Below, one piece after another: positions 18,775 to 59,366 of a DNA stretch of 64,000 nt (position 1 is its first letter; the number at the start of each line of letters is the position of its first letter). The translations under genes and the position numbers were made by a program. Origin of the DNA: an uncultured Candidatus Rokubacteria bacterium (GTDB lineage Bacteria > Methylomirabilota > Methylomirabilia > Rokubacteriales > CSP1-6); NCBI GenBank assembly GCA_963762145.1, contig CAVXJS010000010.1, positions 96,001 through 160,000 on the forward strand, in the 5' to 3' direction. Below the pieces are notes generated by a model. The model did no database searches and was not told where the DNA came from. It saw nothing but the letters and a program-made list of their open reading frames with translations.

Positions 18775-18904
18775 ATGAGACCAAAGTCCACTGGGCGAGG
18801 GGATTCCTCGTCACTAGACTGAAGGGGTGGAAAAGTCAGACGACCTGAGACGGGCCACCGCGCTCTGGCGGGCGGCCTACCGCTACCAGATCGACGGCGA
18901 GCTC
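18775..18904 (+). repeat. Diverged copy of the TPR gene promoter and 5' end
   Basis: Matches 9577-9707 (CATGAGACCAAAGTCCACTGGGCGAGGGG...GAGCTC) with scattered substitutions. Confidence 0.92.
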
Positions 18905-18968
18905 ACGCTGCCGCGCGGTCAGTCACAGGACAGTCGTGGACAGAGTGCAGGCTCACAAGGAGACAGCC

Positions 18969-19298
18969 ATGGAATTCCACGGTGTTGATGTCGGGACCCA
19001 GTTCAAGCGCATGCGGGAACTCGTGCCGGAAGCGTACCGGGCTTTTCTCGAGTTCGATCAGAAGGCGTTCAAGGACGGCGCGCTCCCCGGCAAGACCAAG
19101 GAGCTCATGGCGCTCGGCATCGCTCAGATCACGCAGTGCCCATGGTGCATCCAGGCCCATACGAAGAAGGCAGCGCTGGCCGGAGCCTCCGACGCGGAGA
19201 TCGCGGAGACGACCTTCGTCGCGATGGCGATGGCGGCCGGGGCGGCGTGGAGCCACGGGGGGCTCGCGCTACAGTGCCTCCAGGAACACAAGGGCTAG
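18969..19298 (+). CDS. Carboxymuconolactone decarboxylase / AhpD-like protein
   Basis: GALPGKTKELMALGIAQITQCPWCIQAH. Confidence 0.92.
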   Translation: MEFHGVDVGTQFKRMRELVPEAYRAFLEFDQKAFKDGALPGKTKELMALGIAQITQCPWCIQAHTKKAALAGASDAEIAETTFVAMAMAAGAAWSHGGLALQCLQEHKG

Positions 19299-19333
19299 TT
19301 TCGAACTCACCGTCGGGCACGCCTAGGAAGACG

Positions 19334-19391
19334 CCTCAGCGCGCGGGCTGCGCCGCCGCGCGAAGCCGAGCCGTCTCCTCCGGGACGACCT
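19334..19391 (-). repeat. Copy of the hydantoinase B 3' end, including the stop codon
   Basis: CCTCAGCGCGCGGGCTGCGCCGCCGCGCGAAGC...GGGACGACCT matches 36324-36381. Confidence 0.92.
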
Positions 19392-19404
19392 GCCGCGCTC
19401 GCAA

Positions 19405-55192: not shown

Positions 55193-58100
55193 GCGAGTAC
55201 GGCTACGTCGAGCAGCCCATCCTCGGCTGGCTCTGCGGCGAGCCGAAGGCGAAGTACGGCGAGCAGGCGGCCTCGGCTGGACGTATCGCGACGAGGCGGC
55301 GATGCGCCGCTACGACCGCCCGCTGGAGGACCCGCTGGTCGAGAAGCTGCTGGTCGCAGGCGATCCTGCGCATCAACCCGAGAGTGAAGACCGAGGCGCA
55401 GGCGAAGCTCGCCGTCGCGGCGCTGCGCAAGACGATGTCGCACCCGGACAAGCTCACGGCGAACCGCGAGACGCTCGACCTGCTGCGCGACGGCGCGAAG
55501 GTCGTGCTCGACGCCGGGCGAAGACGCGACGACGGTGCACTTCATCGCGTTCGATCCCGACCGGCAGGACCTGAACGACTTCACCGCCACCAACCAGTAC
55601 CGCGTGCAGGGCGTGAAGCAGTGCCGCGAGGACACGGTGCTGCTGGTGAACGGCATCCCGCTCGTGATCGCCGAGTACAAGAGCTACGTCGCGAGCGGCA
55701 AGGACTGGACGCGAGGCGGTGCATCAGCTCCACCGCTACCAGCGCCAGGCGCCGCTGATGCTCGACGCCGAACGTCTTCTGCGTCGCGGCGGACGAGGAC
55801 GAGTTCCGCTACGGCACCGTGCTGTTCCACGACGCGAGCAAGGACGACATCGAGCGGCACCTCGACACCTGGGGCCGCTGGCTGAGCCTCTACCCCGAGC
55901 AGCAAAGGCTGGTGGAACGAGCCGGAGGCCGACCGACCCGGACGATCCGCTGGAAGTGCCGGTCAAGGGCCTGCTGCGGCTGAAGCCCGCGCACCTGCTC
56001 GACTTCCTGCAGCACTTCGTCGTCTTCGAGACCAAGAAGGGCAAGACCACCAAGAAGATCGCGCGCTACCAGCAGTTCGAGGCGGTGAACGAGCTCGTGG
56101 ACCGCACGCGTGTCGCTCGTCGGGCAGCCGGTCGACGCCGCAGGATCGCACCGGCCTCATCTGGCACACGCAGGGCTCGGGCAAGTCGCTCACGATGATC
56201 TTCGCCGGCCAGAAGCTCCGGCGGCACCCGGCGCTGAACAACCCCACGGTGCTGATCGTCGTGGACCGGCGCGACCTGAAGACGCAGCTCTCGGACGACT
56301 TCGACGCCTGCGACTACCCGAACGTGGAGAAGGCGCTGGGCGTCGAGGACCTGAAGACGCAAGCTGCGCAGCCGACTGGCGCGGCACGCTGGTGACGACC
56401 ATGCAGTCGTTCCAGAAGATGGGCGACCTCGCGCCGCTCGACGCGCGACAACATCATCAGCATGGTGGACGAGTGCCACCGCTCGCAGAAGGGCGACGGC
56501 ACGGAGAGCTTCGCGATGACCATGCGCGTGAAGCTCGCCGAACGGCTTCCGCTTCGGCTTCACCGGCACGCCGATCGACCGGACGATGCAGAACACGCAC
56601 CGCGATTTCGGCCCGCTGAAGGACGGCGTGCAGGAGCGCTACCTCAGCTACTACGGCATCCGGCGCGCGATCCAGGACGGCGCGACGCTGGAGGTGCACT
56701 ACATCCGCGACAAGGTGCCGTTCCAGGTGGACGAGGAGACGCTGAACGTCGGCTACGAGCAGATGTGCGAGGAGATGGAGCTGGAGGACGAGGAGGCCAA
56801 GGACTTCGTCCAGCGCCAGCGGTCGCAGTGGAAGGAGCTGGCCCGCCATCCCGACCGCGTGGACATCGTGCTCGAGCAAGATGCTGACGCACTTCCTGGA
56901 GCATCCCGACCCGAACGGCTTCAAGGCGCAGCTCGTGGCCGTGGACCGCAAGGCGTGCGCGCGTCTACAAGGACGCGCTCGACGACGAAGCTGAAGGCGC
57001 GCGGCCTGCCGCCCGAATGGTCCGACGTCATCATCTCCGCGGCGCAGAACAGCGAGCCCGACGTCGAGCGCTTCGAGTACGCGCAAGGCAGAAGCAGGAC
57101 GAGCTGATCGACTACTTCAAGCTCACGCCGGCGGAGTGGGAGGACTGGAACCGCGAGCGGCACGGCGAGGACCGCAGCAAGTGGCGGCCGCCGCTCAAGA
57201 TCCTGATCGTCTGCGACCGGCTGCTGACCGGCTTCGACGCGCCGGTCGAGCAGGTGATGTATCTCGACAAGCCGCTGCGCGACCACAACCTGCTCCAGGC
57301 CATCGCCCGCACCAACCGCCCGCTGCCCGCGATGAAGAAGCGCACCGGCGTCGTCGTGGACTACTTCGGCGTGTTCACGAACCTGGAGAAGGCGCTCAAC
57401 TTCGACGAGAGCATCCGCGAGGAGTCGCTGATCGACTGGGACGCGCTGCGCGCGACGGTGCCGGGCGAGGTGGCGCGCTGCATGGAGCTGTTCGAGGGCA
57501 TCACGATCGCCGACACGCGCGAATGTCTGCTCGCGGCGCTTGCGGCGCCTGCGGGACCCGGAGGCGGCCAAGAACTTCGAGCACAACTTCAGGAGCCTGG
57601 AACGGCTGTGGGAGGCGGTGGCGCCCGACCCGTGCCTCTACCCGCACCGCTACCACGTACAACTGGCTGTGCGGGATCTACGTCGCTCACCGGCGGCGGC
57701 AGCGCGGAAGCAAGGACACCTATGGCGAGCTGTCCGCCAAGACGCGCGCAGCTGATCCAAGAGAACACCACGTTCATCGACATCGCCGAGTCGCTGCCGG
57801 TCTTCAAGATCGACAAGGATTACGTCACCAAGCTGGACGAGCTGCCCACGCCCGCCGACAAGGCGGCGGCGCTGGAGGCCATCCTGACCGGCGAGCTGTC
57901 CGAGGACGATCCGAGCTTCATCTACCGGCAGCTCGGCGAGCGGCTGCAGCGGGTCAAGGAGCGCAAGGATGCCGGCGACGAGGCCGCCGCGAAGCGTCTG
58001 CGGGAGCTTGAGGAGATCGCGGACGAGAGCCGCGGCGACGAAGCAGGAGCCGGAGCGCCTCGAATCTGACCCAGCCTGGCGAGTACGGGCTGTTCACGAT

Positions 58101-58371
58101 CCTGCGCGCACACGCGCCAGCACGCGACGAGGCCTATGTCGCGGATTGCGCGCGGCGCATGGTCGCGCACCTGCGTAGCAACCAGCTGCTGGCGCCGGGC
58201 TGGAGCAACTCGATCGGCGGGCGGATGCGCGTCGAGCAGTCGTTGCTGGCGGAGTCGTGGAATCCGCCCTACGCGCAGCTCGGCTTCGACCCGGATGCGG
58301 AAGATCCGCCGTTCCTGAAGCCGGCGGTGAGCGAACTCGCCAAGTCGGATGGGAGTGAGCTGACGCAATGA
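55189..58371 (+). CDS. hsdR: Type I R-M restriction subunit (many frameshifts)
   Basis: NGIPLVIAEYK, ARYQQ, WHTQGSGKS, DECHRS, GFTGTP, LLTGFDAP, LLQAIARTNR. Confidence 0.92.
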
Positions 58372-59126
58372 AGGCCAGCGACCCAACACCAGATCCGGCT
58401 CGGCGGCCGCCGCGTCGACTACCGGGTGGTGCGATCGACGGCCGCGCGCAAGCTGCGCGTCCGAGTCGGTCCGAACGGCGTCGAGGTGGTGCAGCCCGAC
58501 GCACGCGCAACGGCGAGGATGTGTCGGCGTTTCTGGATCGCAACGAGGCGTGGATTCTCGATCAGCTCCAGCGCGTCGAGCGACTGCGCGGCGTGCGACG
58601 GCCCGACGCAGCGTCGGGCCGGCGAGATTCTCTTCCGTGGCGAGCCGACGCGGGTCCGCGATCGAGACGACGAGCGACGCGCAGCGCGTGGCAACATCGG
58701 TCGACTTCATCGAACGGCGAGATCGTGGTTCGGCGCGGACACGGATCGCGAACGCCGGTGGCACGCAGCCTGGAGAACTGGCTGCGGAAGCAGGCGCGCG
58801 CGGAGATCGAGCGACAGCTTGCCGTCGATCACCGCGCGCCTCGGCAGAAGCCCCAGCCGGCGTCTACGTGATGGGGCAGCGCACCAAGTGGGGCAACTGC
58901 TCGGCGCGACGGAACCTATCGTTCAACTGGCGGCTTGATCCTCGCGCCGGAGTTCGTGCTCCGCTACCTCGTCACCCACGAGGCCGTCCATCTTGCGATT
59001 CCGGATCATTCGGCGAAGTTCTGGCTGACGGTGCAGAGCCTGTGCCGCGAGACGGAGAGAGCGAAGCAGTGGCTGTGCAGTCATCAAGCGCAGTTGACGG
59101 TCGACCTTTCGCGCGTCTTACGGTGA
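58368..59126 (+). CDS. M48/SprT-like (YgjP) metallopeptidase (frameshifted)
   Basis: KWGNCS, LSFNWRL, YLVTHEAVHL..PDHS..FW. Confidence 0.88.
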
Positions 59127-59180
59127 GCGCGTAGCTCAGTGTCAATATCTCCGCTTCCTTCGGGGACGTCGCGGGCGGGT

Positions 59181-59366
59181 GACGGCGAGATCGACCGGGC
59201 CATCGAGCACAGCACCGCTCCGTCGCGGTTCACCCCACGGAGAAGCCCCACACGTTCCTGGGCTGGTCCCTGAGCTTCCGGGGCCGACTGGGGGGTACGG
59301 CCGAGTGCCTCCGCGCGATCGAGATCGACCCCGACTTCGGCAACCCCTACAACGACATCGGGGTCT
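59181..59366 (+). repeat. Degenerate copy of an internal TPR gene segment
   Basis: Matches 9696-9886, including GAGATCGACCCCGACTTCGGCAACCCCTACAACGACATCGGGGTCTA. Confidence 0.92.

Follow-up and report, generated by a model that had tools for sequence, protein, structure and literature searches.

Same-orientation fragments of backbone genes separate accessory genes in an array of a Rokubacteria genome

We analyzed a window of 64,000 nt (contig C10, positions 96001-160000) from the genome of an uncultured Candidatus Rokubacteria bacterium, in which unrelated accessory genes alternate with short, diverged copies of a few backbone genes. These copies are called ghosts in the following, and the accessory genes cargo. 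The genome (G000) is a metagenome-assembled genome of 6.26 Mb in 25 contigs with ~70% G+C, 88% completeness and 5.4% contamination. Within the window the G+C content is reduced (59-75%), and third-position G+C is also below that of the genes immediately to the right. Because raw lists of open reading frames (ORFs) are uninformative at such G+C, genes were called via third-position G+C. Domains were assigned by Pfam and NCBIfam, with Pfam scans covering about 60 ORFs. The nearest relative of G000 in our comparisons is G013, at 93-99% identity.

The backbone consists of genes for a CocE-type hydrolase (C), a luciferase-like monooxygenase (L) and a TPR protein (T), of hydB (B) and hydA (A), and of a five-gene liv-type transporter operon at 45076-49552 on the minus strand, from which livM (M) and the livK leader (K) recur. 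A livK-leader/upstream piece adjoining the catalase-like gene is denoted P, and a prime (C', T', B' etc.) marks a ghost. The left edge of the transporter operon is the overlap of the livM stop codon with the hydA start codon, and a recurring unit, the livM 3' end plus the hydA 5' end, spans this boundary.

Table 1 Backbone genes, ghosts and cargo in the window. Coordinates are window positions; backbone items are listed before cargo.
Feature	Position	Strand	Basis and remarks
CocE/NonD-family hydrolase gene (C), full-length open frame	2527-4455	+	Pfam Peptidase_S15/PepX_C; NCBIfam CocE_NonD; source of four fragments
Luciferase-like monooxygenase gene (L), backbone	8472-9581	+	Pfam; G013 ortholog adjoins C
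Intact TPR gene (T; 9621-10115) with 44-bp upstream region	9577-10123	+	Pfam TPR; source of two fragments
TPR 5' ghost: upstream region and first 29 codons	18774-18904	+	93.1% to 9577-9707; sharp edges
hydB 3'-end ghost part a, beginning at hydB stop codon	19334-19397	-	93.8% to 36324-36387
Insert dividing hydB ghost a/b, 4.1 kb	19398-23513	.	25-bp exact direct repeat, 19367-19391 = 23514-23538 at 100%
hydB 3'-end ghost part b	23514-23607	-	94.6% to 36360-36451
livM internal ghost, two livM pieces (45527-45567, 45739-45781)	24732-24797	-	Self-BLASTN
CocE 5' ghost, just upstream of PLD gene	26526-26559	+	97% to 2575-2608
Collapsed hydB-hydA-liv operon copy	27969-28634	-	Self-BLASTN, Pfam, allele analysis
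CocE 3' ghost, after ceramidase gene	33472-33566	+	89.5% to 4352-4446
Resident hydB and hydA	36326-40138	-	Pfam Hydantoinase_B/A
Decayed livM 3' remnant joined to hydA	40139-40330	-	6 private substitutions and 2 indels vs working livM
CocE 3' ghost, then gene 42981-43604 (-) of no assigned family	42379-42471	+	91% to 4340-4429
hydA 5'/livM 3' ghost (44257-44394), livK-leader ghost (44419-44466)	44257-44466	-	98.6% to 40061-40198; 97.9% to 49569-49616
Working liv transporter operon, livM to livK, with upstream region	45074-49708	-	Pfam
CocE internal ghost, directly after livK upstream region	49709-49738	+	96.7% to 3225-3254
TPR middle ghost	59181-59367	+	89.5% to 9696-9886; 81% to second TPR copy of G013
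Iteration 1 cargo: NAGPA (-), second luciferase-like, enoyl-CoA hydratase, cyclase/AAA/TPR gene (-)	10125-18726	.	Pfam
Carboxymuconolactone-decarboxylase-family gene (CMD)	18936-19298	+	Pfam CMD; 90% nt homolog in G012, different context
Third luciferase-like gene	24703-26034	-	Pfam; 89% nt in G003, 93% in G008, other contigs
Phospholipase-D-family gene (PLD)	26632-27930	+	Pfam PLDc_2; 95% in G008, other contig
Catalase-like gene	28649-29590	+	Pfam; same junction in 5 metagenome contigs, L126-L130
DUF1989 (-), SnoaL-like (+), ceramidase (-) genes and unassigned DNA	29609-33445	.	Pfam; catalase-ceramidase adjacency in L127, L131
Trypsin-like and PrsW-like protease genes	33594-36316	-	Pfam; 85% nt in G012 elsewhere
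Truncated ORF6N-like gene, IS481-family transposase (-), DUF5615 gene	40331-42350	.	Pfam, sequence read
ORF6N-domain gene in insert between 66-bp direct repeats (44329-44394 = 45074-45139)	44587-45070	+	Pfam

Self-BLASTN of the window, with strong pairs defined by at least 87% identity over 30-400 bp, yielded 20 direct and no inverted pairs, so that every ghost has the orientation of its source gene. Without these cut-offs the search gives 28 pairs, 26 direct and two inverted, the latter both weak (28 bp at an E-value of 5e-4, and 52 bp at 82.7% between luciferase paralogs). When the genome was tiled into 90 windows of 64 kb, the median was one direct pair per tile, and more than eight direct pairs occurred in only two of the 90, both of mixed orientation (23 direct and 25 inverted; 16 direct and 21 inverted). 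BLASTN against the whole 6.26-Mb assembly found no copy of the fragments with at least 87% identity outside the window. The repeats are thus direct and local, as an initial annotation of this DNA had described them, and not scattered through the genome in random orientation. Every set of fragments listed there was recovered within a few bases, and the substitutions named with them (PAR* to TAR* and NPGP to NPGT) are consistent with the fragment sequences. Three extra pieces were added: 49709-49738, matching 3225-3254; 28597-28634, matching 49656-49694; and the copy at 45074-45288. Also confirmed was the placement of the ghosts in the gaps between accessory genes. The 12 ghost blocks (1646 bp in total) have 0 bp of overlap with accessory gene calls, although these calls make up 40% of the span. 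Their breakpoints are sharp, with ~95% identity falling to noise within 1-2 bases at each edge.

The fragments are scars of whole extra backbone copies rather than short landing pads or recombination sites. This conclusion follows from the gene order in a collapsed operon copy, from a repeat-mediated deletion in a livM ghost, and from longer CocE remnants elsewhere, which are described below with the metagenome contigs. In the collapsed copy, 27969-28239 corresponds to the last 272 bp of hydB (96.3% to 36325-36596), and 28240-28558 comprises the first 126 bp of hydA and the last 213 bp of livM (95% to 40013-40330). The segment 28360-28574 matches 45074-45288 at 97.7%, and ~60 bp of the livK leader follow (28575-28634). 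The copy keeps the operon order and has two large internal deletions, seen as gaps of 3.4 kb and 4.3 kb; an ORF at 27970-28683 encodes a HydA N-terminus fused to a HydB C-terminus according to Pfam. The 66-bp livM ghost at 24732-24797 carries an internal deletion lying between 18-bp near-repeats. The loss of duplicated core sequence that the initial annotation had postulated is therefore documented in both cases. Joints differ in kind: the one at 28239/28240 is blunt, without microhomology, that at 28574 has a 2-bp microhomology, and a filler of 22-24 bp occurs at 44395-44418. This filler, counted as 24 bp, separates the hydA/livM ghost from the livK-leader ghost, and the G013 form is uninterrupted. 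Besides genes for dCache/HAMP and FecR proteins (Pfam) and one without an assigned family, the 4.1-kb insert in the hydB ghost (19398-23513) holds a 0.94-kb copy of part of contig C9 (90% identity); the hydB ghost of G013 lacks this insert. The C9-segment copy, examined separately, was uninformative.

Read from left to right, the backbone items form collinear cycles: C L T...T' B' B' M'; C'...B' A' M' P catalase...ceramidase; C'...B A M'; C'...A' M' K', then M K P; and C'...T'. Their order shows five descents in 15 steps, compared with 7.4 expected (shuffle test, P = 0.04), and four of the five descents go back to CocE. For each backbone gene, the full length is present in one iteration only, and elsewhere there are ghosts of 30-670 bp.

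With moderate confidence, we interpret the region as a stack of about five partial iterations, now eroded, that all run in the same direction and go back to one ancestral backbone block. In this block, C, L and T would have been followed by hydB, hydA, the liv transporter genes, the livK leader, the catalase-like gene and the ceramidase gene, in this order. Extra copies may have arisen via unequal homologous recombination, a process unable to invert DNA, so that the copies would keep their orientation. The recombination partner would have been the sister chromosome in some events and possibly incoming DNA of a relative in others. Redundant backbone was then lost piecemeal through deletions whose joints are blunt or lie at short repeats. 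Each iteration retains its own cargo, for the entry of which homology-driven capture is a possible route. As direct repeats, the ghosts could still feed loop-outs and further unequal exchanges.

Comparison with relatives gave information on the direction and age of these changes. The hydB-hydA-liv genes adjoin one another without any ghosts in G002, in the same-genus genome G008 (to which locus L042 belongs), in G010 and in G012, so the hydA/livM split in G000 is derived. G013 possesses a compact array sharing some of the scars of G000. Its hydB 3' ghost adjoins the TPR 3' end, a decayed livM remnant with a 28-bp deletion is attached to hydA, and an uninterrupted hydA 5'/livM 3' ghost precedes livM. 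The hydB ghosts of G000 and G013 have C at column 48 and A at column 50 of the alignment in common, the latter unique to these two, which places this ghost before the G000/G013 split; the livM 3' remnant is older than that split as well. In G007, a truncated hydA is joined to DNA that in G000 is located at the left end of the window; G007 also has a hydB-like ghost of its own.

Another array was found on contig C102 of G034, in the order C, a 578-bp second C, L 3' ghost, hydratase, T 5' ghost, C ghost, PLD, another fragment, and L; all six of its self-repeats are direct. From a second TPR copy after the hydratase gene, G000 keeps 9577-9707, G034 keeps 9577-9624, and G013 the middle and the 3' end. 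A C fragment stands ahead of PLD in both G000 and G034, taken from a different part of CocE in each. Neither G034 nor G035 yielded a match to the collapsed copy. The G034 contig (locus L043) is 65 kb long, is filed under a Limnocylindria bin that lacks the hyd-liv genes, and is 89-95% identical to G000 over several genes; judging from these similarities, it is probably mis-binned. Its name has the k141 form, which we take to mark a short-read assembler.

A rearrangement of similar kind exists outside the window. The genes that flank the operon in G008 and G002 (G008:C19:75347-101649) lie adjacent and order-swapped at G000:C10:7384-18124, and the operon is ~115 kb away in G000. The swap, from a b L R to b a R L with all genes on the same strand, is by sequence comparison the same signature of order change without inversion as in the array.

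We further aligned 80 metagenome contigs with close catalase homologs against the window. Other array genes are carried by 15 of these contigs, and the remaining 65 show none. The catalase gene is followed by C from its start in L133 and L144, and after ~1 kb in L138. It is followed by the ceramidase gene in L127 and L131; in L131 a C gene with an intact 5' part comes next, where G000 keeps 95 bp. In all five metagenome contigs that hold the 42981-43604 gene, this gene adjoins a CocE remnant that follows the catalase gene. The remnant measures 343 bp in L126, L128 and L167, 242 bp in L129 and 108 bp in L130, compared with 93 bp in G000. In L130, the livK leader runs directly into the catalase gene, and the contig ends 61 bp into the leader. 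The order livK leader, catalase, ceramidase, CocE is supported by L130, L131 and L133. Together with the other arrangements, L130 points to the ancestral order hydB, hydA, liv, livK leader, catalase, (ceramidase), C, which also explains the C fragment at 49709 right after the resident livK leader. In the same direction, the 38 bp upstream of the catalase-like gene (28597-28634) match the livK upstream region 49656-49694, which suggests that livK and catalase were once a divergent gene pair.

The orientation relative to catalase is as in G000 in all 19 module placements, which come from 11 metagenome contigs. All but two have at least 80% amino acid identity, the exceptions being C in L144 (65% aa, 85% nt) and the third luciferase-like gene in L140 (51% aa, 84-94% nt). 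Four low-identity matches whose strand differs from that in G000 were excluded from this count as likely paralogs: NAGPA-like genes in L170 and L195 (68% and 60% aa), a cyclase-like stretch of 42 residues in L136, and a livM-like match of 42% identity in L168. The junctions of the P ghost with catalase and of the CocE ghost with the 42981-43604 gene recur in independent contigs at 88-97% identity. An exact-match scan of the metagenome contigs did not find the hydB/hydA fusion joint. Of the words sampled from 23400-33399, a fraction of up to 0.77 is present in soil metagenome runs, which is not evidence for any junction. The same scars, eroded to different degrees, occur in three relatives (G013, G034 and G007) and in independent soil metagenome contigs. 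The junctions are therefore biological, and some of them are older than the species splits. The scars also keep their cargo neighbors in G034 and the metagenome contigs, a point that the initial annotation had proposed to check.

The sources of the extra copies appear to differ. The livM 3' remnant at 40139-40330 has six substitutions in 197 positions relative to working livM, all private, plus two indels, and looks like an in-place duplicate. Likewise, the second CocE copy of G034 is 96.5% identical to G034's own gene and 92.4% to that of G000, and also looks as if it was made in place. An own-sequence origin fits these two copies and is doubtful for 27969-28574.

The collapsed copy and a few other observations weigh against the eroded-stack interpretation. 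Segment 27969-28574 differs from the G000 residents at 17 of 590 positions and from those of G013 at 15 of 590, whereas the two sets of residents differ by eight. Its distances to outgroups equal those of the resident (37 vs 37, 38 vs 38 and 71 vs 70), and it has seven private substitutions in 590 and no small indel. Such few private changes and equidistance are hard to reconcile with an old in-place duplicate. Moreover, ghosts of cargo genes were not found in the window self-BLASTN. Cargo would thus have been outside the copied block and requires at least 10 separate entries or arrival with imported copies. Copies with different neighbors share edges to 1-3 bases, for example the hydB stop codon in G000, G013 and G007. 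At P = 0.04, the collinearity test gives weak support. In addition, one full-length copy of each gene is not strictly one intact copy of each, given that, compared with all nine other sequences across this column (eight orthologs and the ghost 27969-28239), resident hydB contains one additional base ~210 bp ahead of its stop codon; this gene may be a pseudogene or contain a sequencing error.

The collapsed copy retains ancestral states at positions with derived states common to G000, G013, G010 and G015. By its substitution pattern it looks like an allele that separated before G000 and G013, stayed under selection until recently and then became a pseudogene. Import from a relative would account for this, as would, less parsimoniously, a second operon that was retained for a long time. 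The comparison relies on distances because an IQ-TREE tree of the copy had only 45-68% support at the relevant nodes. The cargo flanking the copy was not found in G013 and is present singly, in other contexts, in G002, G003, G005, G008 and G012. The initial annotation asked whether ghosts are closer to the allele of another strain: the collapsed copy looks like an equidistant, diverged allele, and the livM remnant and the G034 CocE copy look to be of the in-place type. The enrichment of mismatches at third codon positions that it proposed to test is present (44 of 80), but it is not diagnostic. As a sign of imported functional alleles we rejected this excess: in the in-place livM remnant, five of six mismatches are likewise at third positions (four of the six are GC-to-AT, all private).

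These results bear on an alternative in which homology-anchored import was the main process. Iterations would have come from a related strain, either by a single crossover with a circular piece or with one homologous and one illegitimate end; the doubled core would then have been deleted, and cargo would have stacked without an integrase. We consider this possible, yet on balance unlikely. The collapsed copy argues for it, with its ancestral states and cleaner sequence (7/590 private and no small indel vs 6/197 and two indels in the livM remnant), and so does the neighboring cargo, which was not found in G013 and occurs in more distant relatives. CMD (90%) and the trypsin-PrsW pair (85%) exceed the backbone (80%) in identity to G012, the same scars and cargo neighbors occur together in different genomes, and array genes are spread over three contigs in G008. 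The hydB and livM 3' ghosts lie downstream of their parent genes, like displaced 3' ends, and for arrays of this sort homology-facilitated illegitimate recombination has been proposed (PMC5361080). The genome also has two Ku genes and a ComEC gene, which together with the blunt and microhomology joints make end-joining deletion and DNA uptake plausible. However, a donor arrangement, such as PLD beside a full hydB, was found neither in five same-genus relatives searched nor at the PLD loci checked (7 of 80 by DNA, 3 by protein) or the 80 catalase loci. Two or more of the duplicates seem to have formed in place, and the TPR 5' ghost, downstream of its gene, is on the wrong side for a displaced 5' end. 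The third-position excess of 44/80 does not discriminate, and the allele signal could also stem from recombination into the resident genes. From the capture model of the initial annotation, the additive, orientation-preserving, duplicate-then-delete character is retained. Short core homology as the landing pad of each accessory gene is possible but doubtful as a general rule, considering that the fragments are remains of long copies and that two of the copies look in-place. Homology-anchored capture from relatives is supported for at most one iteration and is unproven in general.

The sharp edges, the blunt joint at 28239/28240, the 22-24-bp fillers, the 2-bp microhomology at 28574, the two Ku genes and the exclusively local sources could also reflect a patchwork from double-strand-break repair or fork restart, in which end joining or microhomology-mediated template switching duplicated short pieces of neighboring genes and captured stray DNA at the joints. 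This is improbable, as template switching should yield some inverted pieces, of which there are none among 20, and as the pieces follow the order of the source block. Moreover, longer orthologous remnants of the CocE, TPR and livK-leader pieces exist in other genomes, so these pieces shrank and were not copied short. Even less probable is an assembly artefact that strung together haplotypes of co-occurring strains. G000 is a metagenome bin with the contamination given above, and Rokubacteria populations have unusually high cell-to-cell genomic heterogeneity, as reported in PMC5712423. But the ghosts show GC-to-AT changes private to them, small indels and a deletion at near-repeats, G013 has orthologous ghosts with species-level divergence, G034 has its own array in what is presumably a short-read assembly, and two ghost junctions recur in independent metagenome contigs. 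Such private decay and recurrence in other assemblies speak against an artefact.

We give least credence to a site-specific recombinase system, be it an array of the integron type or integrative islands added in tandem at a single attachment site. An Xer-like tyrosine recombinase and an rve transposase do lie 1.3-3.4 kb beyond the right end of the window, and the right third of the window is rich in defense and mobile genes. The initial statement that no integrase is visible is correct inside the window, where a whole-genome PF00589 search placed no tyrosine recombinase, and needs to be extended by the Xer-like enzyme 1.3 kb past its right end. With 79.8 bits, that enzyme stays below the cut-off of the integron-integrase model (TIGR02249; 265) and is not one of these integrases. 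The repeats stem from at least five different genes and not from a single site. No 8-mer was common to more than three of the 30 junction sides, in a comparison that used no attC structure model. There is no tRNA gene in the window or the next 20 kb, and no Rfam family was found. A Y2 HUH transposase at one end of the array, which rolling-circle (IS91/ISCR) capture would require, is also lacking: the only PF04986 match of the whole genome lies on contig C9 and not on C10.

The pattern of an eroded stack resembles tandem duplication with random loss, a concept from animal mitochondrial gene orders. Both have same-orientation pseudogene remnants between genes, order changes without inversion, collinear cycles and each gene at full length once. 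Here, in contrast, the process would have taken place on a bacterial chromosome, with about five iterations that each have unrelated cargo, and at least one copy may be an imported allele instead of a self-copy.

That no named system resembles this array, as initially annotated, is too strong a statement. For orphan-module arrays of Rhs, CDI and type VI secretion (T6SS) loci, PMC5361080 describes C-terminal or sequential displacement, proposes homology-facilitated illegitimate recombination and draws a likeness to integrons. Such arrays also have displaced 3' fragments downstream in the same orientation with unrelated genes between them, and grow additively without an integrase. The hydB ghosts at 27969, 23514 and 19334 and the livM ghosts at 44331, 40135 and 28362 are 3' ghosts downstream of their parents, whereas the TPR 5' ghost and the CocE ghosts do not match this geometry. 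Unlike in those arrays, several housekeeping-type genes are ghosted here, including 5' and internal pieces, and whole-operon copies were present. Those arrays also center on a polymorphic toxin gene, constant in its body and variable at its tip, with accompanying immunity genes. Among the about 60 ORFs scanned with Pfam, which encode hydrolases, transporters, oxidoreductases and the like, there were no polymorphic toxin/immunity or Rhs/CdiA/VgrG/PAAR families.

Integron arrays are similar in their stacks of unrelated genes with repeated elements between them. They have an IntI-type tyrosine recombinase alongside and attC-type imperfect palindromes at the cassette borders, whereas the present array has no IntI and no shared attI/attC-like site that we could find, has cargo on both strands and has gene fragments as repeats. 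Tandem integrase-borne islands differ by their integrase and their common attachment-site repeat, often a tRNA 3' end, compared with repeats from at least five genes and no tRNA gene in our case. For tandem paralog clusters, PMC2568036 describes a unit of evolution that extends from the 3' end of one gene across the spacer into the 5' end of its neighbor. The unit of livM 3' end plus hydA 5' end also crosses a gene boundary and was duplicated as such, but that study concerns a tandem paralog family, while the scars here come from a multigene block.

Bacterial genomes are usually thought to be quick to shed spare DNA. Here, a large-genome lineage keeps readable scars of block copying or import across species splits, so the succession of steps by which a variable region grew can be reconstructed. 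If imported copies are the rule, accessory genes would accumulate by ordinary homologous recombination without a dedicated recombinase, and the idea of displacement arrays would reach beyond toxin loci to ordinary metabolic genes. It is a speculative and rather doubtful extension that Rokubacteria-like soil bacteria run an integrase-free, RecA-type cassette economy, in which gene modules move from genome to genome along with flanking backbone scraps, and these scraps serve as portable homology sites for additive stacking within one zone of the chromosome and for reshuffling without inversion. The public contigs, with the same modules in many orders and never inverted, could be a resource for population-level study.

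Several of the accessory genes showed further peculiarities. In the third luciferase-like ORF, tblastn homology to G003 ends at residue 352 of 443 and DNA identity extends to 24816; the frame continues through the livM ghost, and its 3' end is possibly chimeric. For the PLD-family protein, aa identity is 75-80% to proteins of many Burkholderiales and ~85% to those of bins labeled Verrucomicrobiia and Steroidobacteraceae, which suggests a recent cross-phylum transfer or mis-binned contigs. The two ORF6N-domain genes (40331-40600 and 44587-45070) share 76.6% nt identity, and each begins at a backbone breakpoint. The first has no start codon, overlaps the 3' end of the IS481-family transposase at ~40519-40600 and may be cut by this element. 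A tblastx self-comparison of the window was swamped by high-G+C noise and was kept only for spotting these two ORF6N-like segments.

At the right, a cluster of defense and mobile genes (49958-64000) contains, besides a TauD fragment and Uma2, a type I restriction-modification system disrupted by frameshift and a retron-like reverse transcriptase (60835-61761); past this cluster lie the Xer-like recombinase and the rve transposase (L017:1284-3353). At the left, a truncated GroEL-like gene (6041-8098) lies within 3.9 kb of DNA inserted between C and L and missing from G013, and has copies of 85%, 80% and 71% identity on C10 (at 298888), C17 and C21. The cyclase/AAA_16/TPR gene (15355-18726, and also 1-303) has ~13 paralogs in the genome with 66-73% nt identity, whose conserved 5' ends yield matches of 80-87% over ~100 bp.

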